Shown here one piece after another: positions 1-13,201 of a stretch of DNA of 13,201 bases. The notes below the pieces were generated by a model. That model ran no database searches. It was not told where the DNA came from and saw only the letters and a program-made list of their open reading frames with translations. Position 1 is the first letter of the stretch. Each line of letters opens with the position of its first letter. The stretch spans positions 1 through 13,201 of the forward strand of contig PKZK01000024.1 in assembly GCA_003133025.1 (NCBI GenBank), given 5' to 3'. A program made the translations under genes and the position numbers. The DNA comes from Vulcanimicrobiota bacterium (GTDB taxonomy: Bacteria > Vulcanimicrobiota > Vulcanimicrobiia > Vulcanimicrobiales > Vulcanimicrobiaceae).

Positions 1-1149
1 GTCGAGGAAGCGGCCTCCGGCGTGAAGGGCGAGAATTCCGTCAAGATCTTCGGGGGCGAGCTGAAGACATTGCAAAACGCCGCCGACGAGGTATCGAGAG
101 CCATGGCCAAAGTGCCCGGCATCGCCGACCTCGGCGTGTTCGAGTCGCTGGGCGAGCCGACGTTGAACATCGTGGTCGACCGCAAGCGCGCGGGGCGCTA
201 CGGTCTCGCGCCCGGCGACGTCAATGCCGCGGTGCAAAACGCGATCGGCGGTCAGGCCGCCGGCAACCTGTACGAACCCGGGAGCGACCGCAACTTCCCC
301 ATCGTGGTACGTCTCGCGCCACAGTTTCGCTCGACCGTCGAAGAAATCAAGAAGATCACCGTCAGCGCGCCCGCTCCCGGCGGCATCGGCACGGTGCCCG
401 TTCCGCTGGGCGACGTGGCCGACGTCCGGTTCGTCGACGGCGCCTCGCAGATCTTCCGTGAGAACCAGGAGCGGTACGTTCCGGTGAAATATAGCGTGCG
501 CGGTCGCGATCTCGGTAGCGCAGTCCTCGACGCGCAGGCTCGCGTTGCGAAGGAAGTGCATCTGCCCAGCGGCGTGCGTCTCGAGTGGGTGGGCGAACTC
601 ACCGAATTCAACGAAGCGCTGGCGCGGCTCGGCGTCGCGGTGCCGGTGAGCCTGTTGCTGGTGTTGATCTTGCTCTACTTCAACTTCGGGTCGGTCAGGG
701 AGGCGCTGCTTTCGGCGAGCGTCCTGCCGCTCGCGGTCGTCGGCGGCGTGCTCATTCTGGCGCTGACCCACACGCCGCTCAGCGTCTCCGCGACGATCGG
801 TTTCATCGCGCTCTTCGGTATCTCGATCATGAACGGGCTGATCATCGTCAGTTCGTTCAACGAGAACATCGCTCAGGGTATGTTGCTGTTGCCCGCGATT
901 CGGAAGGCCTGCGACCATCAGCTTCGTCCGGTCGTGATGACCTGCATCGCGGCGTGCGTCGGCCTCTTGCCGGCCGCCCTCTCGAACGGCATCGGCTCGC
1001 AGGTGCAAAAGCCGCTTGCGCTCGTGGTCGTGGGCGGTAGCTTGGTGGCGCCGTTTCTGATCTTGCTGGTATTGCCGGTGTTGCTCAGCGTCTTCGGCAA
1101 GGGCGGTGCGGTCAAGTCGCCGCCGCTTCCCGCACGGAGCGTGACGTGA
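1..1149 (+). CDS. RND efflux permease, CzcA/CusA heavy-metal efflux family (C-terminal part; 5' end outside window)
   Basis: Frame is open from base 1 (VEEAASGVKGENSVKIFG), so the ORF-track start at 22 is internal. RND porter/docking segment (VPLGDVA, RENQERY, VRGRDLGS) is followed by C-terminal TM helices with HME-type motifs GFIALFGISIMNG and LRPVVMT...GIGSQVQKPLALVVVGG. Confidence 0.9.
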   Translation, partial: VEEAASGVKGENSVKIFGGELKTLQNAADEVSRAMAKVPGIADLGVFESLGEPTLNIVVDRKRAGRYGLAPGDVNAAVQNAIGGQAAGNLYEPGSDRNFPIVVRLAPQFRSTVEEIKKITVSAPAPGGIGTVPVPLGDVADVRFVDGASQIFRENQERYVPVKYSVRGRDLGSAVLDAQARVAKEVHLPSGVRLEWVGELTEFNEALARLGVAVPVSLLLVLILLYFNFGSVREALLSASVLPLAVVGGVLILALTHTPLSVSATIGFIALFGISIMNGLIIVSSFNENIAQGMLLLPAIRKACDHQLRPVVMTCIAACVGLLPAALSNGIGSQVQKPLALVVVGGSLVAPFLILLVLPVLLSVFGKGGAVKSPPLPARSVT

Positions 1150-2615
1150 AGCGCATCTACGTTTCCGGCGCGATGATCGCGGCGCTCGCGCTCGCCGGCT
1201 GCAAGCAGCCGCAGCCGCCGCCGACGCCCGTTCCGCCCGCGCCCACCGCCACCGGATACGGTGACGTCCCGCCCGCGACCGCGTCGGCCAACGTCGCGGC
1301 CGGCGTCGCGCAGCGCTTCCACGTCGATATGGACGTGCCCGCGCAGTGGTGGACGCTTTTCCATTCCGAAGAGCTCAACGCGCTCGTCACCGAGGCGATC
1401 GCGAAGAATCCCGACATCGCCTCGGCTCAGGCTGCGCTTCGTGCGGCGCGCGAGAGCTACGTGGCCCAGCGATCCTCCGCCTATCCCAACGCCCAGGGCT
1501 CTTTTGGGGTCACGCGACAGCAATCGCCGACATTTTACGCGCCGCCGCTCAACAGCAACGCCTATGTGTACGGTATCCACACGCTTTCGCTCGACGTGGC
1601 CTACACGCCCGACGTGTTCGGAAACCTCCGCTACCAAACGCTCGCAGCCAAGGCGGGCGTCGACATCCAGCGGTACCAGACCGAGGCGACGTATCTGACG
1701 CTGACGTCGAACGTCGCGCTGACGGCCATCCAACTCGCCTCCATTCGCGATCAGCTCGCCACGACGCACAAGATCATCGAGATCGACCGGAAACTGATCG
1801 ACCTGGCCAAGGCGCAGCGTACCTATGCCCAGGCCGCGGGACTCGACGTACTCTCGCAGGAGGCAGCGCTGGCGGCGATCGAGCAAACCGTGCCGCCGCT
1901 CGAGAAGCAGTTGGGCCAGACCCGCGATCAGCTCGCGCGACTTCTCGGCCGCACGCCCAACGACGCGCCCCCGGCGGCGTTCGATCTGGTCGCGTTGCAT
2001 CTGCCGGAAGATCTGCCGCTTTCGTTGCCCTCGAAACTGATCGTGCAGCGTCCCGACATCGCCGCCGCAACGGCGACCCTCGTGCAAGCCGGCGATCAAG
2101 TCGGCGTGGCCTACACTAATCGGCTGCCGAATTTCTCGATCAACGCCCAGACCGCAACGCAAGCGCTGAGCCTCATCGGACTCTTCGGACCGGGGTCGTT
2201 GCTCTCGGTGCTCACGGCGCAGGTTGCGGCCCCGTTCTACGACCACGGCACGCTCAAGCACCGTGAGGCGGCGGCCATCGCCCAATACGACGAAGCCGCG
2301 GCCGACTACCAAGGTGCGGTGCTCAGCGGCTTCCAGAACGTGGCCGATTCGATGGTCGCCCTGACCAAGGATGCCGACGGCCTGCGTGCCGCGGCGTCGG
2401 CCGACGCTGCAGCGACCAAGTCGCTGCGCATCGTGCAATATCAACTCCGTTACGGTTCGGTCTCCGCGCTCGCCGAACTCAATGCCGAACAGACCTATCA
2501 GCAAGCCGAACTCGCCGTCGTCCAGGCGCAGGCGGCGCGCTTCAGCGATACGGTCGCGCTTTTCCAAGCGCTGGGCGGCGGTTGGTGGAACCGCGCCGAA
2601 ACGACCGGCTCGTAA
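1146..2615 (+). CDS. Efflux outer-membrane factor lipoprotein (NodT/OprM/TolC family)
   Basis: Signal peptide with lipobox LAGC. Motifs QWWTLF..EELNALV.EAIAKNPDI, LPSKLIVQRPDIAAA and C-terminal LFQALGGGWW. GTGA start/stop overlap (1146-1149) with the RND gene. Confidence 0.92.
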   Translation: MKRIYVSGAMIAALALAGCKQPQPPPTPVPPAPTATGYGDVPPATASANVAAGVAQRFHVDMDVPAQWWTLFHSEELNALVTEAIAKNPDIASAQAALRAARESYVAQRSSAYPNAQGSFGVTRQQSPTFYAPPLNSNAYVYGIHTLSLDVAYTPDVFGNLRYQTLAAKAGVDIQRYQTEATYLTLTSNVALTAIQLASIRDQLATTHKIIEIDRKLIDLAKAQRTYAQAAGLDVLSQEAALAAIEQTVPPLEKQLGQTRDQLARLLGRTPNDAPPAAFDLVALHLPEDLPLSLPSKLIVQRPDIAAATATLVQAGDQVGVAYTNRLPNFSINAQTATQALSLIGLFGPGSLLSVLTAQVAAPFYDHGTLKHREAAAIAQYDEAAADYQGAVLSGFQNVADSMVALTKDADGLRAAASADAAATKSLRIVQYQLRYGSVSALAELNAEQTYQQAELAVVQAQAARFSDTVALFQALGGGWWNRAETTGS

Positions 2616-2618
2616 CGG

Positions 2619-4499
2619 CTACAGCGGAACCACCACGCCGATCTGCACCTGCCAATCTTGGCGAATGCCCAAGTCTTCGGGCAGCGGGTGTGCGTTGCGC
2701 AGCAAGAGGTCGAAGTAACCGCGCATCCAGCCGGGCATCGGGTCGTGCTCGTCGCGCACGAGTTTCGGATTAGCGTAGAAGAAGGACGTGTCGGCTCCGT
2801 CGAGCACGAGGCCGGCCTCGGAACAGGACTCTAAAATCGGCGCGATGTTGGGCCGCTCCATGTAACCGAAATTCGCGGTCACGAGCGTCAAGCGGTCGGA
2901 AACGCGCTGGATTGCGACGCGCTGCTCGTCGGAGACGTAGGGGCTCGCGGCGCGCACGAGCGTCAAGAGAATGACGCGCCCTTCATCGGCGCGTTCGCGG
3001 ATCCACTCGTGCGAACCGCCCATGAAGGGCACGCCGTGTTGATCCCCGGTCATGAAGATCATCGTGCCGCGCGCCTTGGCTTTTGCCGGCTTGCTTTCGT
3101 GCACGTATTGCTCGAGCGGCATCTGCAGGTCGAGGAGCGTCTTGGCGATGCAGCGCCGGCCTTCGAGCCAAGTGATCGCGGTCACCACGAACGCGGCGCT
3201 GATGAGCAGCGGCACCCAGGCGCCCTCCGGAATCTTGGGCAAGCCCGAGAGAAAGAACGTGCCGTCGAGTAAAACGAACGACGCGACCAGCGGGATCACG
3301 TAGAACTTGTTCCATTTGAGGACGTTGGCCACCACGTCGTAGAATGCGATCGAGGTCGCGAGCATGGTGGCCGACACGGCGAGGCCATATGCCGCGGCGA
3401 GGTTATCGCTCGAGCGGAAGGTCACGACGAGCACCACGCAGGCGATGCCCAAAGCCACGTTGACCGCCGGGACGTAGACTTGGCCGCGCTGGTTCGTGGA
3501 CGTGTGAATCACGGAGAGGCGCGGCCACAAATTCAGGTTGATGGCCTGTTCGGTCAGCGTGAAGGCGCCCGAGATCAGCGCTTGCGAGGCGATCACGGTG
3601 GCCAGCGTTGCCAGGATCACCATCGGAATCAAGAACGGTCCGGGCGCGAGCGCGAAAAACGGCGAGTCGAATGCGTGCCGGTCGACGAGCAAAATCGCTC
3701 CTTGCCCGAGGTAGCTCAAGAGCAACGTGGGGAAGACGAGCGCGTACCAGGCCGCAACGATCGGAGGCCGGCCGAAGTGCGACATGTCGGCGTAGAGTGC
3801 TTCGACGCCGGTCATGGCCAGCACGATGGCACCGAACACCAGAAAGCCGAAGATGCCGTGGTGCGTCACGAAGCGGATCGCGTGCAACGGGTTCAGCGCG
3901 AACAGAATCTGCGGCGCCTTGAAGATCGCCACCAGTCCGCTCGCACCGATGGCCAAGAACCAAACGACCATCACCGGTCCGAAGATCTTGCCGACGCGTT
4001 GCGTACCGCGCGATTGGATCAGGAAGAGGGCGATCAGGATCGCCACCGAGATCGGCACGATAAAGGGTTGCGCCGCTTTGGTAGCCACGCCGATGCCTTC
4101 GACCGCGGAGATCACCGAGATTGCCGGCGTTATGATGCCGTCGCCGAAGAGCATTGCTGCGCCCGCGATCACGACGATCGTGAGCCAGCCGACCCGCAGC
4201 GGCATGCCGAACGATTTCGGCGGCGAAGCGAGGGCCAGCAACGCTAGGATGCCGCCCTCGCCCTCGTGGTTGACCAGCATCAGATTGCCGATGTACTTCA
4301 CGCAGACGACGAAGGCCAGCGCCCAGAGCAACACCGAGAGGATCCCGAGCACGTTCTCGAGCGTGGGCTCGACGTGCGCGGTGGTGAAGCACGTTTTGAT
4401 CGTGTACAGCGGGCTCGTGCCGATGTCGCCGAACACGACGCCGAGGGCGGCCACGGCGAGTCCGGGGTTCGGCCCCTTTGGGGCGGTAGCTTCTGCCAT
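2619..4499 (-). CDS. kup: KUP/HAK/KT family potassium transporter (~626 aa)
   Basis: Signature motifs LGVVFGDIGTSPLY, GEGGILAL, FGDGIITPAISVISAVEG, TGVEALYADMSHFG, IASQALISGAF, GQVYVP, LAAAYGLAV and FGYME. ATG at 4499 preferred over 4523; start uncertain by 8 codons. Confidence 0.95.
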   Translation of the reverse strand: MAEATAPKGPNPGLAVAALGVVFGDIGTSPLYTIKTCFTTAHVEPTLENVLGILSVLLWALAFVVCVKYIGNLMLVNHEGEGGILALLALASPPKSFGMPLRVGWLTIVVIAGAAMLFGDGIITPAISVISAVEGIGVATKAAQPFIVPISVAILIALFLIQSRGTQRVGKIFGPVMVVWFLAIGASGLVAIFKAPQILFALNPLHAIRFVTHHGIFGFLVFGAIVLAMTGVEALYADMSHFGRPPIVAAWYALVFPTLLLSYLGQGAILLVDRHAFDSPFFALAPGPFLIPMVILATLATVIASQALISGAFTLTEQAINLNLWPRLSVIHTSTNQRGQVYVPAVNVALGIACVVLVVTFRSSDNLAAAYGLAVSATMLATSIAFYDVVANVLKWNKFYVIPLVASFVLLDGTFFLSGLPKIPEGAWVPLLISAAFVVTAITWLEGRRCIAKTLLDLQMPLEQYVHESKPAKAKARGTMIFMTGDQHGVPFMGGSHEWIRERADEGRVILLTLVRAASPYVSDEQRVAIQRVSDRLTLVTANFGYMERPNIAPILESCSEAGLVLDGADTSFFYANPKLVRDEHDPMPGWMRGYFDLLLRNAHPLPEDLGIRQDWQVQIGVVVPL

Positions 4500-4577
4500 C
4501 GCGCCTGTGTATACGCGAAACATTCCGATATTCCGCGAGGCGGGGTTGCGCGCGCGAGGCGCTGAACCAGACGCGCG

Positions 4578-5996
4578 ATGTTTTTCACCGGATTCGCGCT
4601 TGCGGTCGCATTTGTGTCGCCCGCGCCCGCAACTCCGGGCGCTAGTCCATCCGGCTCACCCGCGCCTAGCCCTGCCGTCTCAGCGGCCCCTTCGCCTGCG
4701 CCGACCGCGACGCCCAAGCCCGAACGCTTCAGCGCGCACCTGCAAGCGACCGACACGCAGCAGTATCACGGCGGATTCCGCGCCGCGTATTCCGGGCCCC
4801 AGAGCCTCTCCGCGCGGCCCGATACGGCGAAGACGATCGACGCGACTTTGTTCCTCGGCGCGCATCTCTGGCAGGGCGGCGAATTGTACGTGAACCCCGA
4901 ATTGGATCAAGGTTTTGGATTGGGTCAGCCCGCGCCACCCGGCGGCATCTACGAGGGCACCGTCGGCGTCGCGGGCTACGTGAGCGGCGAGGCGTACAAG
5001 GTGGGTCGAGACAGTTCGTACGGCCGGATCCAGCGCTCGTTCTTGCGCCAGACGATCGAGCTCGGCGGCGGCGATGCACGGAGCGTCGATCCCGACATCA
5101 ATCAACTCGGCGGCTCGATTGCGCCCAAGCATCTCATTCTGACCGCGGGCAAGTTCTCGGTGGTCGACGTGTTCGACGACAACGTCTACGCGCACGATCC
5201 GAAGAACGATTTCCTCAACTGGACGATCATCGACATGGGTTCGTTCGACTACGCGGCCGACGCGTGGGGTTACACCTACGGTGCGAGTGCGGAACTCACG
5301 AGCGGCCTCTCGACCGCCCGCGCCGGACTCTTTCAACTGTCACTGCAGCCCAACGTGATCGCGGTCGAATCCGTGCCGCTGCGCCAGTATATGCCCGTGT
5401 TCGAATTCGAGCGGCGCACGTCGCTCTTCGGCGGCCGGCCGGGTGCGCTCAAAGCGTTGGCCTATTACGACGACGGCTACATGGGTGCGTACGCCGATGC
5501 GGTCGATGCGGCGATCGGAACGGGCAAGCCGCCCAGTACTGCGGACGTGCGTCAGAACAAGCACGTCAAGATCGGCGAGGGCCTCAACCTGGCTCAAGAG
5601 ATCGCGCCCCATGTGGGCGTCTTCGCGCGGCTCAGCGCGATGAACGGAACCTATGAAGCCTTCGAGTTCAGCGACGTCGACCGCGCGGCATCGGGTGGCG
5701 TCTCGATCGACGGTGGCCTCTATCATCGACCCGACGACGCCTTCGGTCTCGCCTGCGCTTTCAACGCGATCTCCACGCCCGCGCAGCGCTATTTCGCGGC
5801 CGGAGGCCTGGGCATTCTCGCCGGCGACGGCGCCCTCTCGTACGCGGGCGAACGCGTGCTCGAGACCTACTATAAGGCCGGTTTCACCAAGCATTTCGCG
5901 CTGACGTTCGATTACCAGTACATTACGAACCCGGCCTACAATACGGCGCGCGGCCCCGTCTCCGTGTACGGCCTGCGCTACCACGTGCAACTCTGA
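4578..5996 (+). CDS. Outer-membrane porin, OprB/'carbohydrate porin' superfamily, MnoP-like subgroup
   Basis: Sec signal peptide, then a Pro/Ser/Ala linker. Motifs LWQGGELYVNPE..QGFG, FLRQTIELGG, GKFSVVDVFDDNVYAHDP..FLNW, FDYAADAWGY and DYQYITNPAYN.ARGPV. Ends in a beta-strand-like GLRYHVQL. Confidence 0.8.
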   Translation: MFFTGFALAVAFVSPAPATPGASPSGSPAPSPAVSAAPSPAPTATPKPERFSAHLQATDTQQYHGGFRAAYSGPQSLSARPDTAKTIDATLFLGAHLWQGGELYVNPELDQGFGLGQPAPPGGIYEGTVGVAGYVSGEAYKVGRDSSYGRIQRSFLRQTIELGGGDARSVDPDINQLGGSIAPKHLILTAGKFSVVDVFDDNVYAHDPKNDFLNWTIIDMGSFDYAADAWGYTYGASAELTSGLSTARAGLFQLSLQPNVIAVESVPLRQYMPVFEFERRTSLFGGRPGALKALAYYDDGYMGAYADAVDAAIGTGKPPSTADVRQNKHVKIGEGLNLAQEIAPHVGVFARLSAMNGTYEAFEFSDVDRAASGGVSIDGGLYHRPDDAFGLACAFNAISTPAQRYFAAGGLGILAGDGALSYAGERVLETYYKAGFTKHFALTFDYQYITNPAYNTARGPVSVYGLRYHVQL

Positions 5997-6081
5997 CTTC
6001 AGCGTGACGACCTCGCGAGGCGGCAGCGACAGCGGCGGACGCGGCGCGGTGTTCCGAGTCGCGCCGTAGAAGCCCCGACGG

Positions 6082-7632
6082 GTGTGGGTGCTCGCGGTTG
6101 CCATCATCGGTTCGAGCATGATCTTCATCGATGCCAACGCGGTCAACGTGGCGTTGCCTTCGATGCAGCGCGACCTTCATGCCTCGGCGGCCGAGTTGCA
6201 ATGGGTCGTCGAGGGGTACTCGCTCTTCCTGTCGGCGTTGATCCTCATCGGCGGATCGCTGGGCGACATCTTCGGGCGGCGTCTGATCTTCGTCATCGGG
6301 ATCGCGCTGTTCGCCTGCGCGTCGGCCGGCTGTGCCGCCGCGGGTTCGATCGGCGAACTCGAAATCGCGCGCTGCATCCAAGGCGTGGGTGGCGCGCTCG
6401 CCACGCCCGGGAGCTTGGCCTTGATCAGTGCCAACTTCCCCGACGCCGAACGCGGCCGCGCCATCGGCACCTGGTCCGGCTTTGCGGCGATCACGGCGGC
6501 GCTCGGGCCGCTGCTGGGCGGATGGCTCGCGCAACACGCCTCGTGGCGGTACGTCTTCTTGATCAACTTGCCCCTCGCCGTCTTCGTCGCGATCGCGGCG
6601 CTCGCGCGCGTCCCGGAGAGCCGCGATGAAGACGTCGATCGAACGGTCGACGCCGGCGGTGCGAGCCTAGCCACGCTCGGCCTCGGCGCGCTGACCTTCG
6701 GGCTGATTCGTTTGCAGACCGACGTGGGCGACATCCCGGGGCTCGCGTCGTGCTCGTGCGGCATCCTGCTGCTCGTCGCTTTCTTCCTATGGGAGCGGCG
6801 TGCGAAGGTGCCGATGATTCCGACCAACGTCTTCGCCAACGTCACGTTCTCGATTGCAAACGCGTATACGTTGCTGCTCTATGCCGCGCTCGGCGGCAGC
6901 CTGTTCTTCGTGCCCTTCGATCTACAGAACGTCTTGGGTTACTCCCCTACCGCCGCGGGTGCTTCGCTGCTACCGTTCATCGTCATCATGTTTACGCTCT
7001 CGCGCTGGTCGGGTGGCCTGGTCGCGCGGATCGGCGCACGTTTGCCGCTGGTGACGGGCAGCATTCTCGCAGGCATCGGTTTCCTGGCTTTTGCGCGCGC
7101 GAGCGGCGGCGGCTCGTACTGGACGACGTTCTTCCCCGCGGCCGTCCTGCTGGGCTTTGGCGGGGCGTTGTTCGTCGCGCCGTTGACGACGACCGTGATG
7201 GAAGCGCTCGATCCGGCGCGCGCCGGGCTCGCCTCGGGCATCAACAACGCGGTGTCGCGCATCGCGGCACTCGTGGCCATCGCGGCACTCGGGATCGTGC
7301 TGTCGACGGTGTTGCTGGCGCATTTCGACGGCGCCCTGGGTGCGTTGCACCTTCCGCAGAGCACCCTGTCCTCGCTTGCCGGCGACCGCGCATCGCTGAC
7401 CACGGGGCGCGTGCCCGCGAATCTTCCCGAGCCCGACCGTGCCCGTGTCGACGCCGCGCTCCGCGACGCGTATACCGCCGGTTTTCGAGCGGTCATGCTG
7501 CTCTCGGCGTTGCTTTCGTTTGCAGCGGCGTTGGTTGCGTGGTTCGGCCTCAGTGGTGGCCCGGACCGTCGAGCGGACGCTGGTCGCTCTCGCGCGGCAC
7601 CAGCACCAGCAATTCCCGCGCTCCCGCGTTGA
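6082..7632 (+). CDS. MFS drug:H+ antiporter, DHA2 (EmrB/QacA-like, 14-TMS) family
   Basis: Motif D-like FIDANAVNVALP, motif A GSLGDIFGRR, motif B ARCIQGVG, motif C-like GPLLGGWL, and WRYVFLINLP. Many hydrophobic helices. An in-frame TAG at 6067-6069 limits the start to GTG 6082 or later. Confidence 0.92.
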   Translation: MWVLAVAIIGSSMIFIDANAVNVALPSMQRDLHASAAELQWVVEGYSLFLSALILIGGSLGDIFGRRLIFVIGIALFACASAGCAAAGSIGELEIARCIQGVGGALATPGSLALISANFPDAERGRAIGTWSGFAAITAALGPLLGGWLAQHASWRYVFLINLPLAVFVAIAALARVPESRDEDVDRTVDAGGASLATLGLGALTFGLIRLQTDVGDIPGLASCSCGILLLVAFFLWERRAKVPMIPTNVFANVTFSIANAYTLLLYAALGGSLFFVPFDLQNVLGYSPTAAGASLLPFIVIMFTLSRWSGGLVARIGARLPLVTGSILAGIGFLAFARASGGGSYWTTFFPAAVLLGFGGALFVAPLTTTVMEALDPARAGLASGINNAVSRIAALVAIAALGIVLSTVLLAHFDGALGALHLPQSTLSSLAGDRASLTTGRVPANLPEPDRARVDAALRDAYTAGFRAVMLLSALLSFAAALVAWFGLSGGPDRRADAGRSRAAPAPAIPALPR

Positions 7633-9670
7633 GCGCGCGCACGGCAAACGACCGTTTGCCGAAGAGCGACCGCGCCTTGCGCGGCGATTCGACGGCGAGT
7701 ACGTCGCCGTCGACCAGCATGCCGGCCAGATGCACCGCAGCGTCCGGTGCGACGACGGTGGCGAAGGTGCCGCGCGCGACCTTGGTCGCCTCGGTCAAGG
7801 CGGCGATCGCCGGTGCGTCGCTCGGCGATTCTCGCGGGACGACGCTGACGACGCGCACGTCGATGTCCAAGCGCCGGGCGAGACGGCCGATGCGCCGCAC
7901 CAGAATTACGTCGCGTTCGCGCGGCGCGACCCCGAGTACGATGCGCGCGAAGGGTTGTTCGCGGCGCGCCGCCGATCTGGCGTGCACCAATTCGCGCACG
8001 GTCAGTTCGCGCAGCGCGGCGAGGTTTTCGGTGCGGAAGAAGTTGCACAGCGCGGCTTCGATGCGTTCGGGCGGATAGATCTTGCCTTCGCGCAGACGCT
8101 CGCGCAGCACGTCGGGCGTCACGTCGACGAAGACGACCTCGTCGGCGAATTCCAGCACGCTGTCGGGCAGCGTCTCGCGCACGCGCGTGCCGGTCAACCG
8201 TTCGACCGCATCGCCTACGCCCTCGAGGTGCTGCACGTTGAGCGTCGTGATCACGTCGACTCCGGCGCGCAGCACCGCGAAGACGTCGTCGTAGCGCTTC
8301 ACGCGTGCACCCGCGCTGACGTTGGTGTGCGCGAGTTCGTCGATCAAAGCAACCTGCGGTTTGCGCGCCAGCAGGGTTTCGAGATCGATCTCGTTGTTGG
8401 CCAAACGCGGGATTTGCTCGAGACCGGTCAGTTTCTCGGCGGTCTCCGAGCGGCCGTGCGTCTCGATCAACGCGGCGACCACGTCGACGCCTTCCTCGCG
8501 GAGTTGGTGGGCGCGGTCGAGCATCGCGTAGGTCTTGCCGCTGCCGGCCGCGGAGCCGAGATAGATCGTCAGCTTGCCATATCCGATGCGCATCCGGTCG
8601 GCCAGCGCGAACCCGTAGGGGTGACGCGCGGTCTCGTAGGCGGCGCGCAGCGGCGGCCGTTCGGGGTCGGCGACGAGCAGATCGCGATCGAGCGGACGCG
8701 TGAGAATGCGTTCGGCGAGCGGCCCGCGCGGCACGATCACGAGCGACGCGCGCACGTCGGTGAGGTCGCCGCGGGCCAGGCCCGCCGGCGCCGGCACGCG
8801 ACCGGCCTCGGCGCGCAGCGCAGCGTCGACGAAGGCGTCGTCCTCGCGACCGTCGATCGCGGTCGTCTCCAGCGCGAGATCGATCGCCTCGGCAAATGCC
8901 GCCGAGCGGCGCAGAAAGGGCCCCGGGTCGGGGCTTTCGCCGACCACCGCCAGCGCCGTCGAGAGTTTGCTCGGCGCCACGACGGGAATCGTCAGGCTAT
9001 CCACGGTGCGCAAGAGCAACTCGCGCATCATCTGCAAATTCTTGGGTTGGAACAGTCCGGCTGCGGCGCGATCGACGTCTTCGCTGCGCACGATGCGTCC
9101 GGTGCGCAGGCGAGATTCGAGGATCGAGGGCGCCACGTCGATCGCGATAACGCGGTCGCAACGGCGCAGAAACGACATCGGGATCAGTTCCCGGATCGGG
9201 TGCCCGACGATCCGTTCGGCGACCGGTGCGACGTTGTCGAGGTGCATCACGTTGAAGGCGCCGAGCACGGACTTCCCGGCCTCGCGCAAGGCCAGCGCGT
9301 CTTGCCAGCGCTTGGCGTGCGGCGCGCCCGCGGGGTTGGCGTGCGCGAGTTCGTCGAGCAGGATCGTCTCGTACTCGCTCGCGAGGGCGGCCTCGAGATC
9401 GAAGTCGTCGATGCCGCCTTCGCCCGCGCCGAACGAACGCGGCGGAATGCGCGGCAGCATGTCGGCGAGCGCGTCGAGGTCGGGGCGGCGTTTGGTCTCC
9501 ACCCAGCCGATGGCGACCCGCCGGCCGGCCTTGGCTTCGCGCAGCGCGTCCGTAAGCAAGCGGTAGGTCTTACCGGCGCCCGGCGCGCCGCCGAGATAGA
9601 TCGTCAGACGCGGGGTCAAGCCCAGCTCGACGAGCAGCGCTCCCGCATCGGTCCGACGATCGTCTCGCAC
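7550..9670 (-). CDS. Soluble KdpD-like sensor: two tandem KdpD N-terminal domains, each followed by a Usp-like domain; no TM, HisKA or HATPase (~706 aa)
   Basis: Two copies of LTIYLG-[Walker A GKT]Y (GGAPGAGKT at 9566-9592; GSAAGSGKT at 8531-8557), DELAH.N, KR[WY].D, NV.HL, RE..P and NL...REL. Proposed start is GTG 9670 (MRDDRRTDAGALL); the longer ORF-track N-terminus is the antisense of the kinase gene. The Usp assignments are weaker than the KdpD-domain ones. Confidence 0.85.
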   Translation of the reverse strand: MRDDRRTDAGALLVELGLTPRLTIYLGGAPGAGKTYRLLTDALREAKAGRRVAIGWVETKRRPDLDALADMLPRIPPRSFGAGEGGIDDFDLEAALASEYETILLDELAHANPAGAPHAKRWQDALALREAGKSVLGAFNVMHLDNVAPVAERIVGHPIRELIPMSFLRRCDRVIAIDVAPSILESRLRTGRIVRSEDVDRAAAGLFQPKNLQMMRELLLRTVDSLTIPVVAPSKLSTALAVVGESPDPGPFLRRSAAFAEAIDLALETTAIDGREDDAFVDAALRAEAGRVPAPAGLARGDLTDVRASLVIVPRGPLAERILTRPLDRDLLVADPERPPLRAAYETARHPYGFALADRMRIGYGKLTIYLGSAAGSGKTYAMLDRAHQLREEGVDVVAALIETHGRSETAEKLTGLEQIPRLANNEIDLETLLARKPQVALIDELAHTNVSAGARVKRYDDVFAVLRAGVDVITTLNVQHLEGVGDAVERLTGTRVRETLPDSVLEFADEVVFVDVTPDVLRERLREGKIYPPERIEAALCNFFRTENLAALRELTVRELVHARSAARREQPFARIVLGVAPRERDVILVRRIGRLARRLDIDVRVVSVVPRESPSDAPAIAALTEATKVARGTFATVVAPDAAVHLAGMLVDGDVLAVESPRKARSLFGKRSFAVRALNAGARELLVLVPRESDQRPLDGPGHH
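8555..8572. repeat. Copy A of an 18-nt identical intragenic repeat (GCCGAGATAGATCGTCAG), also at 9590-9607
   Basis: Exact 18-mer encoding LTIYLG in both KdpD modules, 1035 nt apart. A second exact 17-mer (GTGCGCGAGTTCGTCGA, DELAH region) occurs at 8327-8343 and 9341-9357. Confidence 0.85.
9590..9607. repeat. Copy B of the 18-nt intragenic repeat in the tandem KdpD-like gene
   Basis: Identical to 8555-8572; reflects the internal domain duplication. Confidence 0.85.
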
Positions 9671-9718
9671 CGATTGGGGGTTCGCAGGGCGTGCCGCCGG
9701 GTCCCCGAAGGCCTCGGC

Positions 9719-11263
9719 GTGGGCTCGCGCGCAGTCGCCGTCGTCGCCTTCACGTTGCTCGCCGCGTTCTTCGTCGTCGACGCCTTGACGCCGCAGACGC
9801 TCGTGATCGCGATTCTGTTCGACATCCCGATCCTGCTCGCCGCGCTGACGCGCAGCCGGCGGTTGACGGCCGCACTCGTGGCAGCGGCGGTCTCGGCGGA
9901 CGCGCTCGCGGCGATCGTCAATGCCGCGCGCGACGGCTACCGCTGGGATCCGATCGGCATCGGCGACCGCGCCCTGTCGATTCTGTCGATCCTGATGGTC
10001 GGGTACTTGAGCACCGTCGTGCAAGCGCGTTCGGAACGCGTGGGCCGGCTCGCCGCGCAAGAGGCGCGCGCGCGGCGCGAGGTGACCTTTTCCGCCGCCG
10101 CCGATCGGATTCGCACCTCGCTCTCGCTCGACGTGGTGATCCGGGCCATCGTCCGCGAAGCGCCGCGCGCGCTCGACGCCGAGCGCGCGGTCTGGTATCC
10201 GTCCGGCGCGGGCCGCGAGACGCTGGCCGCGCGCGACGACGAAGCGGTCGAGGTGCTCGACGAACCCGTTCCGCCGGAGATTTCCTCGCTCGCGCATCGC
10301 GTGGTGGAAGAGCGCACGCCGCTGGTCATCGCGGGAGGCGATCCGGTCGGACGGTTCGTGCTCGATCGTCTCGCCGCGACGAGCGCCTTGGCGCTACCGC
10401 TGGCCGATCGCACGCGCACGTTCGGCGTGCTCTTCGTCACGCGTTCGTCCGGAGGGTTCGACGAGGTGGCGCCGGCCGCAGCGCGCGCGTATGCCAATCT
10501 CGCGGTGAACGCGCTCGCGCAGGCCGTGCTCTTCGACGAGTTGGCCGAGCGAAATACCGCGCTCGGCCAACGGCAGGCGGTGATCCACGATTTGGTCGAC
10601 GCGATTTCGCACGACGTGCGCACGCCGCTCGCGGCGCTCTCGCTGACCTTACGTCAGGCGGCCGACGGCGCGTACGGCGACTTGCCGCCCAAGTACGGCG
10701 GCGTGCTGCGCGACAGCCTCGTCTCGATCGACGATCTGCAACGTTTGGCGGAGACGCTGCTGCTGGTGGCGCGCTTCGAGTCTGGCGAGCGGCGTCCCGT
10801 CGAGCGGGCGCCGGTGGACCTGGCCGAGTTGGTCCGCGAAGTCGGTTCCGAGATCGGCGCGATGGCCGAATCGCGTAGCGTGCATCTGACGCTCGACGCG
10901 TCGCCCGCGCGAACGTTGGGCTCGCGCGGGGACCTGCGCCGTGCCGTGATCAATCTTGCCGCAAATGCGGTGCAGCATACGCCGGAAGGCGGCAACGTAG
11001 TTTTGCGCACGGGCGAAAACGGCAAGTCGGTCGAGGTCGCGATCGTGGACGACGGTTTCGGCGTAAACGAGGCGGCGCGCGCGTCGCTTTTTCAACGTTT
11101 TGCCAACGGCTCGAGCGCGGGATCGGGCACGGGTCTGGGCTTGTATATCGTGCGCCGGATCGCCGAGGAGACGGGCGGGAGCGTGCGTTACGAACCGCGC
11201 GCGCCGCAGGGCTCGGCGTTCGTGCTGACCTTACCGAAGGCCGACAGCGCGGCGCACCGATGA
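9719..11263 (+). CDS. Membrane sensor histidine kinase, ~4TM-GAF-HisKA-HATPase (~514 aa), resembling the C-terminal half of KdpD
   Basis: Proposed start GTG 9719, preceded by GAAGG. Four hydrophobic segments lie at ~9730-10020, followed by a GAF-like region (SALALPL...TFGVLFV). H-box SHDVRTPL (His codon 10610-10612), N-box NLAANAVQH, G1 DDGFG, F-box LFQRF, G2 GTGLGL. Confidence 0.9.
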   Translation: MGSRAVAVVAFTLLAAFFVVDALTPQTLVIAILFDIPILLAALTRSRRLTAALVAAAVSADALAAIVNAARDGYRWDPIGIGDRALSILSILMVGYLSTVVQARSERVGRLAAQEARARREVTFSAAADRIRTSLSLDVVIRAIVREAPRALDAERAVWYPSGAGRETLAARDDEAVEVLDEPVPPEISSLAHRVVEERTPLVIAGGDPVGRFVLDRLAATSALALPLADRTRTFGVLFVTRSSGGFDEVAPAAARAYANLAVNALAQAVLFDELAERNTALGQRQAVIHDLVDAISHDVRTPLAALSLTLRQAADGAYGDLPPKYGGVLRDSLVSIDDLQRLAETLLLVARFESGERRPVERAPVDLAELVREVGSEIGAMAESRSVHLTLDASPARTLGSRGDLRRAVINLAANAVQHTPEGGNVVLRTGENGKSVEVAIVDDGFGVNEAARASLFQRFANGSSAGSGTGLGLYIVRRIAEETGGSVRYEPRAPQGSAFVLTLPKADSAAHR

Positions 11264-11904
11264 GCGGCGACGCGCTCGTGCGCATCGTGCTGGTGGAGGA
11301 TCACGCGCTCGTGCGGACGGGCCTGCGCACGTCGTTCGCGGCCGCGGGCTTCGACGTGGTCGCCGAAGCGGCCGACGGCGTCTCCGGGTTCGCCGCGGTC
11401 GAGCGCGAACGGCCCGACGTCGCCGTCGTCGACGTGGGCTTGCCCGGAAAAGACGGCGTCGAATTGACGCGCGAACTCAAGGCGATGCCCGATCCGCCGG
11501 GGGTCGTGGTGCTAACGATGCAAGAACGTCCCGATGCGGTGCTCGCGGCAATCGCCGCCGGCGCCGATGCGTATTGCGTCAAATCATCGGACGTATCGTT
11601 CGTGGTGGATGCGGTGCGCGCGGTGGCCGCGGGCGGCGCCTATTTCGATCCGCGCATTGCCGGCGTCGTGTTGCGTCGCGTCGTTTCGCCGGGTGCGCCG
11701 CCCGAACGTTCGCCGCTCACGCCGCGCGAAACCGACGTGCTCAAGTTGATCGCGGAGGGCGTCGGCAACGCCGAGATCGCCGAACGTTTGAATCTCGGCC
11801 TGGGCACGGTGAAAGGCCACGTCGCCGACATCCTCGAGAAGCTCGAAGCGTCGGACCGCGCGCACGCGGCCGTCACCGCTTTTCGCCGCGGTCTCATTTC
11901 GTAA
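11260..11904 (+). CDS. DNA-binding response regulator, NarL/FixJ (LuxR-HTH) family
   Basis: Receiver domain with acidic pocket VEDH, phospho-acceptor VVDVGLP, LT and YCVK lysine. LuxR HTH LTPRETDVLKLIAEG.GNAEIAERL...GTVKGHV..ILEKL. ATGA overlap (11260-11263) with the kinase stop. Confidence 0.95.
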   Translation: MSGDALVRIVLVEDHALVRTGLRTSFAAAGFDVVAEAADGVSGFAAVERERPDVAVVDVGLPGKDGVELTRELKAMPDPPGVVVLTMQERPDAVLAAIAAGADAYCVKSSDVSFVVDAVRAVAAGGAYFDPRIAGVVLRRVVSPGAPPERSPLTPRETDVLKLIAEGVGNAEIAERLNLGLGTVKGHVADILEKLEASDRAHAAVTAFRRGLIS

Positions 11905-12772
11905 CGAAACCGCAGCGTTCGATCGCGAACGCGATGAAATCGGCAACCGCCTCGGGCACGTCGCGATCGCTCGCGGCCACGAGATGCCACTCTCGATCGA
12001 GCGGGGTGAACGCCGTCGGGATCTGCTGCACCGCGCCGCTGCGTAATTCGGCTTCGACGCCGTCGCGCGAGACCAGCGAATAACCCAGACCCGCGCGCAC
12101 GCAGGCGCTGATCGCGCCGTTGGAGGTGATCGTCAAGCGCGGCGGGTCGATGCCGAGCGCACCGAAGCACTCTTCGGTCAACGCGCGCGTTCCGGAGCCC
12201 GGCTCGCGCAACAGCCACGTTGCCGTTCCCAGCGAGAGCTCCGAGAAGCGTTCGCCCGGCGGCGCGATCACGATCATCTCGTGCTTGCGCGTCGCGAGGG
12301 TGGTGAGCGGCGAATCCAGTGGCGGCCGCCCGGCGATCACGAGATCCACTTCCCAGTGTCGTAGCCGGTCCCAGACGTGTTCGTGGTTGCCCACGTCGAG
12401 GTCGACGCCCACCGCGGGACGCAGCTCGCGAAAACTCTGCAAGAGTTGCGGCACCAGATGTTCGGCCGCGGTGGTGACCGCCGCCAAACCGACCCGGCTG
12501 ACGACTTCGCCGGAGACTTCGCGCGCGCGGCGGCCGCCTTCGTCGAGCAGCGCGAAGACGCGCCGGCCGTAGACCGCAAAGGCTTTGCCCGCGGGCGTGA
12601 GCCGGATTTTGCGGCCGTCGCGTTCGGTCAGCCGCACGCCCATCGAACGCTGCAGCGAGGCCAGCGCGGCCGAGACGGCCGGCTGCGACACCACGAGCGC
12701 GTCGGCCGCCTCCTGGACGGACCCGAGGCGCGCAGTTTCGAGGAAGGCCCGGAGCTGGTAGAGGGAGATCAT
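11894..12772 (-). CDS. cbbR: LysR-family regulator, CbbR (RuBisCO operon regulator)
   Basis: LysR HTH QLRAF...AADALVVSQPAVS...G.RL.ER.GR..RLTPAG. REPGSGTR motif of CbbR/CysL-type effector domains. Divergent from the RuBisCO large-subunit gene, the classic cbbR arrangement. Confidence 0.85.
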   Translation of the reverse strand: MISLYQLRAFLETARLGSVQEAADALVVSQPAVSAALASLQRSMGVRLTERDGRKIRLTPAGKAFAVYGRRVFALLDEGGRRAREVSGEVVSRVGLAAVTTAAEHLVPQLLQSFRELRPAVGVDLDVGNHEHVWDRLRHWEVDLVIAGRPPLDSPLTTLATRKHEMIVIAPPGERFSELSLGTATWLLREPGSGTRALTEECFGALGIDPPRLTITSNGAISACVRAGLGYSLVSRDGVEAELRSGAVQQIPTAFTPLDREWHLVAASDRDVPEAVADFIAFAIERCGFVTK

Positions 12773-12787
12773 AAGTCTATGTTTATG
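12770..12787. promoter_or_regulatory. Putative CbbR recognition site CATAA-N8-TTATG overlapping the cbbR start codon
   Basis: Perfect 5-bp inverted repeat fitting the TNA-N7/8-TNA CbbR-type motif, in an AT-rich island. A second LysR-type T-N11-A (12805-12817) overlaps the putative -35. Confidence 0.65.
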
Positions 12788-12807
12788 AATACGCCGGAAA
12801 GTTGTAT

Positions 12808-12837
12808 TTGACCTTTATGGCTTTCCGGGGGCATACT
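12808..12837 (+). promoter_or_regulatory. Putative sigma70-type cbbL promoter TTGACC-N18-CATACT
   Basis: -35 TTGACC at 12808-12813 (5/6 to consensus) and -10 CATACT at 12832-12837 (4/6), about 40 nt upstream of the cbbL start. Confidence 0.55.
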
Positions 12838-12867
12838 CTGCTGGGCGCGATGGATGCGCCGCACCGC

Positions 12868-12874
12868 GGGAGGA
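12868..12874 (+). promoter_or_regulatory. Shine-Dalgarno sequence of cbbL (GGGAGGA)
   Basis: Contains GGAGG, 5 nt before GTG 12879. Confidence 0.75.
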
Positions 12875-12878
12875 CAGC

Positions 12879-13201
12879 GTGGCTTCAAACACTTTCCAGG
12901 CCGGCGTCAAAGATTACCGGGCGACCTATTGGACGCCCGACTACGTGCCGCTCGACAGCGACCTGCTCGCCGTCTTCAAGATCGTGACGCAGGCCGGCGT
13001 GCCGCGGGAAGAAGCTGCCGCCGCGGTCGCGGCCGAGTCCTCGACGGGAACGTGGACCACCGTTTGGACCGACTGGCTGACCGACCTCGACTACTATCGC
13101 GGCCGTGCCTATCGCATCGAACCGGTGCCCGGCGACCCGAACGCGTTTTATGCCTTCATAGCGTATCCGATCGACCTCTTCGAAGAGGGCTCGGTCGTCA
13201 A
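12879..13201 (+). CDS. cbbL: RuBisCO large subunit, form I green-type (IA-like), N-terminal 107 aa; runs off the window
   Basis: Manual translation: [107 protein letters not shown]. Contains the RbcL signatures [15 protein letters not shown] and [10 protein letters not shown], with a strong SD upstream. Confidence 0.96.

Follow-up and report, generated by a model that had tools for sequence, protein, structure and literature searches.

We analyzed a 13,201-nt stretch of a Vulcanimicrobiota bacterium genome (assembly GCA_003133025.1, contig PKZK01000024.1, positions 1 to 13,201; hereafter the window), and the three-gene cassette in it is best read as a two-armed controller of the K+ pump KdpFABC, with no need for its two main proteins to bind each other, a reading to which we give a probability of about 0.62. 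The cassette consists of a doubled KdpD-N/Usp gene on the minus strand (7550..9670, GTG start, 706 aa), a divergent spacer of 48 bp (9671..9718), a sensor histidine kinase gene on the plus strand (9719..11263, GTG start, 514 aa) and, also on the plus strand, a gene for a NarL/LuxR-family response regulator (11260..11904; REC + GerE, D58), the start of which overlaps the kinase stop codon. In the first arm, which is very probable, the kinase and the regulator would activate kdp transcription; in the second, which is probable at a somewhat lower level, the doubled protein would phosphorylate KdpB at serine 162 (S162) and so inhibit the pump.

A first-pass annotation of this DNA had described the two divergent genes as a split KdpD, in which a soluble sensor half and a membrane-kinase half would reconstitute a KdpD-like sensor in trans. 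Its description of the locus stands: the two open reading frames (ORFs) lie head-to-head 48 bp apart, the junction (9279-10346) is covered gap-free by a contig from a separate peat study (run X7) with three substitutions, and the window sequence contains no N. The minus-strand gene has no transmembrane (TM) or histidine-kinase part, as had been stated, and additionally carries two full KdpD-N + Usp-like units. The plus-strand gene encodes four N-terminal helices followed by GAF (aa 136-267), HisKA (aa 291-356, with the motif SHDVRTPL and H298) and HATPase_c (aa 404-508) in Pfam, again as described. The regulator gene at 11260-11904 was absent from that account of the pair. The source genome is 80% complete, and an RNA run (X16) gave short pieces over 7 of 30 bins, which are uninformative on expression.

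The first arm is carried foremost by orthology, as the kinase and the regulator are, judged by their sequences, orthologues of Deinococcus radiodurans DR_B0082 and DR_B0081. Comparison of hidden Markov models (HMM-HMM, hhalign) between the kinase family and DR_B0082 gave a probability of 100% over 475 columns, TM helices included, and the TM profile of the family scored 70 bits on the D. radiodurans kdp kinase and 103 bits on that of Allomeiothermus, two proteins that obtain negative scores with a KdpD-TM profile and that join the kinase family in one clade with a support of 99 in the Shimodaira-Hasegawa-like approximate likelihood ratio test (SH-aLRT). The best match of DR_B0082 in this genome is the window kinase, and the two best matches of DR_B0081 are the window regulator and an in-genome paralogue on contig C17. 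The regulator is 48% identical to DR_B0081, which likewise has REC-GerE architecture, and the order of kinase then regulator is common to the window and D. radiodurans. A tblastn search with the first 279 aa of the kinase against plasmids returned no match; single-sequence searches miss this kinase family, because tblastn failed where profile methods found the Deinococcus orthologues. In D. radiodurans, KdpB is no longer induced by K+ limitation once DR_B0081 has been deleted, and binding of the DR_B0081 protein to the kdp promoter has been demonstrated (Dani et al. 2017, PMC5716572); in the open-access literature this was the only paper found on DR_B0082 and kdp. A paralogous pair of GAF-bearing kinase and NarL regulator was located on C17 of this genome (L160:7762-9899) and in genome G029 (L165:6756-8914); it matches the window pair at 46%/62%, in the tree its kinase branches as the sister of the window kinase, and no kdp gene, doubled gene or operator lies near it.

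The plus-strand product had also been taken for the missing remainder of KdpD, with a TM region akin to the KdpD membrane domain, and only a part of this claim survives. Functionally, the kinase appears to stand in the place of the KdpD C-terminal half; descent from that half is unsupported, given the failed TM tests, the NarL-type regulator and the clade shared with Deinococcota. The Pfam scan of the 9719-11263 product returned the expected GAF domain and no match to DUF4118 (PF13493) at E<0.05, and DUF4118 was matched nowhere else in this genome. A KdpD-TM profile built from 26 fused KdpDs gave the kinase family ≤5.6 bits, compared with 57-115 bits for 11 true split KdpD C-halves used as positive controls, and hhalign between the TM regions of the kinase family and of KdpD gave a probability of 2.8%. 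With a KdpD-GAF profile the kinase family reached ≤17.8 bits, five of the 11 true halves scored 26-42, and the other true halves stood at ≤10 or were unlisted. The TM region belongs to a family of its own, with the pattern D-x2-TP...G-x2-NG...R, the profile of which matched 154 proteins among 1.84 billion; two of 67 scanned relatives, both distant, touch DUF4118 below the cut-off, and a very remote common origin of the four-helix bundle with DUF4118 is possible without being shown. Three DUF4118 matches in 61 relatives are located away from the cassette, with no KdpD-N match in the fetched stretch. In the catalytic-domain tree, which kept 87 of 119 qualifying rows, the kinase family forms its own clade (support 99) outside the KdpD group (88); a joint clade of the two was not rejected by the approximately unbiased (AU) test (p=0.44), and this tree alone is not decisive. 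NCBIfam gave only generic sub-threshold matches, and a fold search with the whole kinase model was uninformative, its list being dominated by catalytic and GAF domains, with the TM part barely probed and the KdpD TM structure unlisted. The coupled regulator, being of REC + GerE (NarL/LuxR) type, is not an OmpR-family KdpE. On this evidence from sequence, the kinase does not qualify as the other half of an E. coli-type KdpD. One 334-aa protein (P0050) combines this TM domain with a GerE helix-turn-helix and has no kinase part. Another kinase clade (98) was observed at the Deltaproteobacterial, Aminicenantes and Chlorobi kdp loci L092, L094, L095, L099, L101, L103-L105, L119, L120, L125, L144 and L154, where the regulators are long (~450 aa) and probably of NtrC type, a further replacement of KdpD-C/KdpE.

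The second line of evidence for the first arm is a putative operator upstream of kdpA in the relatives, ATCCGAACGGA-TCA-TCCGTTCGGCGG, with two boxes (TCCG-WW-CGGA) in a 13-bp period. Of 40 operon-leading kdpA genes, 36 have a site of ≥14 bits no more than 1.7 kb away, a partly circular count since the matrix was trained on 29 sites; no such site was found in 40 shuffles or in 70 control loci, almost all of which belong to other phyla. Farther upstream, ten sites (25-41 bits) were detected outside the training regions, and in the three of these that were read out a porin-like gene separates the box from kdp. A TA...T hexamer follows the operator by 23-25 nt in 27 of 28 strong sites, a spacing that an activator next to a -10 box would be expected to show. 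A scan of 6.7 million genome positions, with the own kdp-operon site left out of the matrix, placed the kdp promoter of this genome (C264:13649, 29 bits) on top; the same genome has matches in front of a BBP2 porin gene after kdpC (19.7 bits) and in one coding region (19.4 bits). A lone kdpA on contig C153 (L036:2560-4307), without kdpB or kdpC behind it, has a weaker operator of 17-19 bits (17.4 in the genome scan; the site belongs to the training set), and extra kdpA copies were also noted in L045 and L061. The best score within the window is 4.3 bits, and therefore neither autoregulation nor kup control by this box is indicated. The operator stays beside the kinase and regulator genes in two kdp-less genomes (L163, L164) and is therefore tied to the regulator rather than to the pump; binding of the regulator to it is the step that these positions suggest.

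Several side observations concern genes near the operator. Porin-like outer-membrane genes (BBP2 and others) stand beside kdp with an operator of their own (L035:13222-14924; L084, L088, L044, L048, L053), which suggests that the K+-limitation regulon includes porins. Of the four genomes described below that have a GAF-less kinase and no pump, three carry an APC-family permease gene head-to-head with the kinase gene, in the place of the doubled gene (L163:8688-10157; L164, upstream of 1997, minus strand, from the unpublished genome G059; L162:1-1098, minus strand), with an operator in front (a half-site in L162). NCBIfam and PDB searches gave it only generic amino-acid/polyamine transporter matches, with KimA weak (E 8e-8, for a paralogue in L163), and the arrangement is possibly a rewired regulon. 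Two small membrane-peptide ORFs precede kdpA here (L035:8690-8900) and in most relative kdp operons, one KdpF-like and ending in LRPE(K/R)F and the second of ~30 aa, which we take to be kdpF and kdpZ. A kdpB pseudogene in this genome (L035:10589-12585) was considered and is unsupported, as the apparent breaks fall on NN assembly gaps; among the pieces listed, contigs of four other runs did not bridge these gaps.

The second arm rests on the doubled protein. It comprises, all on the minus strand, a divergent KdpD-N domain 1 (9002..9610; PF02702, 191 bits), a degenerate Usp-like domain 1 (8663..8965; hhalign 36% to Usp2 and 20% to KdpD Usp), a canonical KdpD-N domain 2 (7988..8578; PF02702, 264 bits) and a Usp domain 2 of KdpD type (7595..7951; hhalign probability 98.9% to a KdpD Usp alignment). 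The AlphaFold2 model (predicted local distance difference test, pLDDT, 85) consists of KdpD-N, alpha/beta sandwich, KdpD-N and alpha/beta sandwich, the first sandwich being the degenerate Usp-like domain, and a TM-score of 0.90 was obtained between the model KdpD-N and the Pseudomonas syringae KdpD-N structure 2R8R. Across 37 aligned proteins, domain 2 keeps G-x5-GKT, D444/E445 and R525 in all 37, with Y or F at the W39-equivalent in 34. Domain 1 keeps GKT, the Walker B aspartate and the R190-equivalent in 37/37 and the Walker B glutamate in 36/37; its first Walker A glycine is kept in 11 and missing in 26, and its W39-equivalent is R in 26, H in six and Y in five, Y being the residue in the window protein. 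The PF02702 search disclosed no second KdpD-N protein elsewhere in this genome.

The N-terminal domain (NTD) of KdpD alone phosphorylates KdpB-S162, using G36/K37/T38, D109/E110 and W39/R190, and a kinase-less KdpD of Deinococcus geothermalis also phosphorylates the KdpB serine, stimulated by cyclic di-AMP (c-di-AMP), so that KdpD-N serine-kinase activity needs no histidine kinase (PMC11018627). The TGES motif of KdpB is present in 29 of 34 rows, including that of this genome, with three rows partial and two unresolved by pattern. The doubled protein is therefore predicted, by its residues and the modelled fold, to be a stand-alone atypical serine kinase for KdpB, with domain 2 as the likely catalytic copy and domain 1 a divergent and possibly regulatory one. 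Fold, catalytic residues and substrate motif are observed here, and the activity and its trigger are what we infer from them. The trigger might be c-di-AMP, because the genome has a diadenylate cyclase gene.

Tandem KdpD-N proteins also occur in Bacillota, cyanobacteria and Dormiibacterota, and the idea that the doubled architecture is exclusive to Vulcanimicrobiota was rejected. In a 67-row domain tree the tandems fall into at least three groups, with those of Bacillota apart and the Vulcanimicrobiota domain 1 sister to domain 1 of two cyanobacterial tandems (SH-aLRT 92); of these two, one is encoded behind a kinase and a NarL-type regulator.

The conservation of the divergent pair was assessed in 40 relative loci, fetched from 43 relative genomes with a match. 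The doubled gene and the kinase gene are both present in 34 loci, of which 30 are head-to-head with gaps of 26-113 bp; the other four are one frameshifted but head-to-head case, one with a 1.1 kb gap and two that are tail-to-tail. Six loci have no kinase, and three of these end at a contig edge. The head-to-head layout, a neighbourhood that the first-pass annotation did not recognize, is thus conserved far beyond chance. Pump genes lie within the fetched stretch in 33 of the 40 loci. Among 151 genomes of the class, with unlisted misses assigned by elimination, the doubled protein, a GAF-bearing kinase and kdpC occur together in 126; the doubled protein without kinase and kdpC in five; a GAF-less kinase only in four; the doubled protein with kdpC and no kinase in one (88% complete, contig edge); kdpC only in one (72% complete); and none of these parts in 14. 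No GAF-bearing kinase without kdpC was found among the 151. The unpublished genomes G048, G027 and G059 are among those used, with G048 and G059 in the set of 151 and G048 also in the alignments.

These counts bear on whether the genes are chance neighbours, a generic two-component pair unrelated to K+ that happens to lie beside a kdpD fragment. Such a reading could point to the window, where no pump genes are adjacent, and to the generic, sub-threshold NCBIfam matches of the kinase; it is contradicted by the synteny, by the co-occurrence in 126 of 151 genomes, by the orthology to a proven kdp regulator and by the operator, and can hardly be true. The two genes belong to one Kdp-control module, as the earlier account had implied. 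The parts of the cassette have not always travelled together: in G004 a doubled protein 80% identical to that of the window stands tail-to-tail with a kinase only 43% identical. The nearest matches of the window cassette genes are in scattered relatives belonging to different families (L037 from G004, L038 from the unpublished G048 and L039 from G023), which together with the 80%/43% mismatch hints at transfer or reassortment of cassette parts.

The same linkage is the ground on which reconstitution in trans has to be weighed. In a form adjusted to the present findings, the doubled protein would amount to two KdpD front halves joined covalently as a pseudo-dimer; it would dock on the kinase dimer, probably at GAF, and form one K+/ATP-sensing complex serving both transcription and KdpB phosphorylation. 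The head-to-head order in 30 of 40 loci and in the frameshifted case speaks for it, as do the 126 genomes with a GAF-bearing kinase, all of which also hold the doubled protein, and the four genomes with in-frame GAF-deleted kinases (G059 of the four being unpublished), none of which has it, the deletions having at least two independent origins. In 24 loci, domain 1 tracks GAF more than domain 2 does (partial r 0.36 versus 0.14), although distance correlations are confounded by linkage. The halves of a split E. coli KdpD complement each other. However, the GAF-less genomes are also without kdpC, so that GAF may have been dropped once the pump or K+ sensing had gone; five genomes keep the doubled protein and have no kinase; the pair is reassorted in G004; the paralogous GAF-bearing kinases (L160, L165) have no adjoining doubled gene; the single kdpD-N gene of D. 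radiodurans lies in the pump operon and not beside the kinase; and the kinase TM sequence is not of the KdpD C-half type. Taken together, we consider this form of the claim rather unlikely. A more specific version, unlikely to a slightly greater degree, would have the doubled protein act as an asymmetric covalent pseudo-dimer on the GAF of an unrelated (non-DUF4118) kinase, so that non-orthologous parts would again make up, in trans, a KdpD-like integrated K+ sensor in which domain 1 tunes the kinase and domain 2 inhibits the pump; loss of partner and pump would then have led to repeated shedding of GAF and to rewiring of the regulon to the APC-family permease.

The genomes that keep the doubled protein alone also allow for a second or different target among K+/cation transporters (a TrkA-TrkA pair, a Na+/H+-exchanger-family protein or Kup), possibly reached via domain 1, for which the protein would be kept. 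The protein with two KdpD-N domains persists where no pump gene was found (no kdpC in G024, G043, G106, G113 and G140; no kdpA in G003 and the unpublished G027), these pump-less copies mostly have trkA-trkA, and often also an exchanger gene, as neighbours, the same setting surrounds a second copy in G016 (L073), and domain 1 keeps its catalytic residues with consistent changes elsewhere. But the full cassette, too, is usually flanked by trkA-trkA and the exchanger gene, and the loci may be deletion remnants: G113 has retained an operator together with a remnant of the kdp leader, and the kinase of G043 is present in broken form. The consulted parts of PMC11018627, PMC5716572 and PMC8214093 report no such substrate, and we regard this explanation as improbable.

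The divergent spacer offers an explanation of the layout that fits two separate arms. In 26 of 31 loci each of the two start codons has a GAA element 5-20 nt upstream, compared with a mean of 0.4 and a maximum of 3 in shuffles. There is no kdp operator in the 48-bp spacer, and a sigma-70 consensus scan of 9400-10000 returned nothing. The spacer probably holds back-to-back weak promoters, and the GAA pattern fits shared basal expression, which can explain the arrangement without protein contact.

The two-armed control would then operate as follows. At low K+, the kinase would autophosphorylate at H298 and pass the phosphate to D58 of the regulator, which would bind the two-box operator before the kdp operon and the adjoining porin-like genes. 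For this arm the orthology, the gene coupling, the motif and the motif position are observed, and K+ is the presumed signal. At high K+, the doubled protein would phosphorylate the KdpB TGES serine (S162 in E. coli), as the E. coli KdpD-NTD and D. geothermalis KdpD do. The head-to-head layout would likely provide both arms with a shared, low-level and operator-independent expression.

A number of points weigh against the two-armed controller. Both arms are transferred to this lineage from sequence and from analogy with Deinococcus and E. coli. The cassette shares no contig with the pump genes of this genome, kdpABC lying on C264 and the lone kdpA on C153. The genomes counted are kin, 44 of the 151 coming from one genus, and the counts are not independent; the operator count has the circularity given above. 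The paralogous kinase/regulator pair on C17 could be the reader of the operator. At the two Deinococcota kdp loci (Deinococcus and Allomeiothermus) the operator matrix gives at best 2.4 and 3.0 bits, scores that would lower the case for the same site rather than that for orthology; for the D. radiodurans kdp promoter a T-rich site has been proposed (PMC5716572). Neither Usp domain, judged by eye, matches the Firmicute c-di-AMP motif (A/G/C)-X-S-X-S-X2-N-(Y/F) (PMC8214093), and D. geothermalis KdpD likewise lacks it by eye, though that protein is c-di-AMP-responsive (PMC11018627). Finally, physical partnership would fit equally well with the tight divergent linkage, with the loss of GAF where the doubled protein is missing and with a residual distance correlation of 0.43 after removal of KdpA and the regulator, the correlations being confounded by linkage and given little weight.

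Compared with known systems, the cassette is a variant of known Kdp control, and the split and doubled KdpD classes are already published. The nearest is that of D. radiodurans, with DR_B0082/DR_B0081 and a separate kdpD-N gene, DR_B0088 (PMC5716572), which shares the four-TM kinase, the coupled NarL/LuxR regulator and a kinase-less KdpD-N/Usp protein. There the KdpD-N/Usp protein is single and encoded in the pump operon, whereas here it is doubled and head-to-head with the kinase; the GAF region is recognized by Pfam here and not in DR_B0082, and the operator found here was undetected in Deinococcus. The linkage of pump genes and kinase-less KdpD-N is shared (33/40 loci, 126/151 genomes), and in this genome the parts are unlinked but present. 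The published class "KdpD domain, Usp domain x2" holds 86 of 5495 species, including 80 Bacillota and two Cyanobacteriota, and was counted, not assayed (Silberberg et al. 2024, PMC11018627, Supplementary Data); it has the same doubled, kinase-less architecture, but in the three Bacillota rows inspected the Walker B of domain 1 is altered to DD/DG, with the glutamate lost, where D-E is kept in 36 of 37 here. The consulted supplements of that paper contain no Eremiobacter or Vulcanimicrobium row. Split KdpD (KdpD/Usp plus TM-GAF-DHpCA) is recorded for 140 species, mainly Bacillota, Acidobacteriota and Chloroflexota (PMC11018627), and resembles the cassette in having serine- and histidine-kinase functions on two chains and the same kinase domain order; its C-halves score 57-115 bits with the KdpD-TM profile and mostly have KdpE-like regulators, in contrast to ≤5.6 bits and a NarL-type regulator here. 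With E. coli KdpD/KdpE the cassette would share the KdpD-N fold, the catalytic residues and a putative two-level control of KdpFABC, and the E. coli system differs in its fused chain, DUF4118 TM domain, OmpR-type KdpE and AT-rich direct-repeat site.

What is new is the Deinococcus orthology, the operator and the repeated loss of GAF with the pump. No paper on Vulcanimicrobiota kdp genes was found in the open-access literature, the scope of that search, with subscription papers (including the Alicyclobacillus and Anabaena originals) outside it. The results describe a probable K+-stress regulon, with a sharp and testable operator, in Vulcanimicrobiota (Eremiobacterota), which live in soil and peat and are largely uncultured, and indicate that the little-studied Deinococcus kdp kinase/regulator pair belongs to a distinct family spanning two phyla, contrary to its label as the "C-terminal half of KdpD". 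The doubled protein, in which neither Walker B motif is damaged, lends itself to asking whether an asymmetric dimer is the working form of the KdpD-N serine kinase, and the GAF-less natural variants provide a test of what the GAF domain senses.

Other genes of the window are local neighbours. The kup K+ transporter gene (2619..4523, minus strand) is not a conserved part of the cassette; it is near the cassette in one of the 40 relative loci and has no operator in front. It is divergent from an OprB-family porin gene, 54 bp apart (2619-5996), and an RND efflux pair adjoins (1-2615). A DHA2-type MFS gene (6082-7632, plus strand) and the doubled gene overlap by 83 bp at their 3' ends (7550-7632). 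At the end of the contig (11894-13201), a CbbR-like LysR regulator gene on the minus strand is divergent from a RuBisCO large-subunit gene, and its 3' end overlaps that of the response regulator gene by 11 bp.

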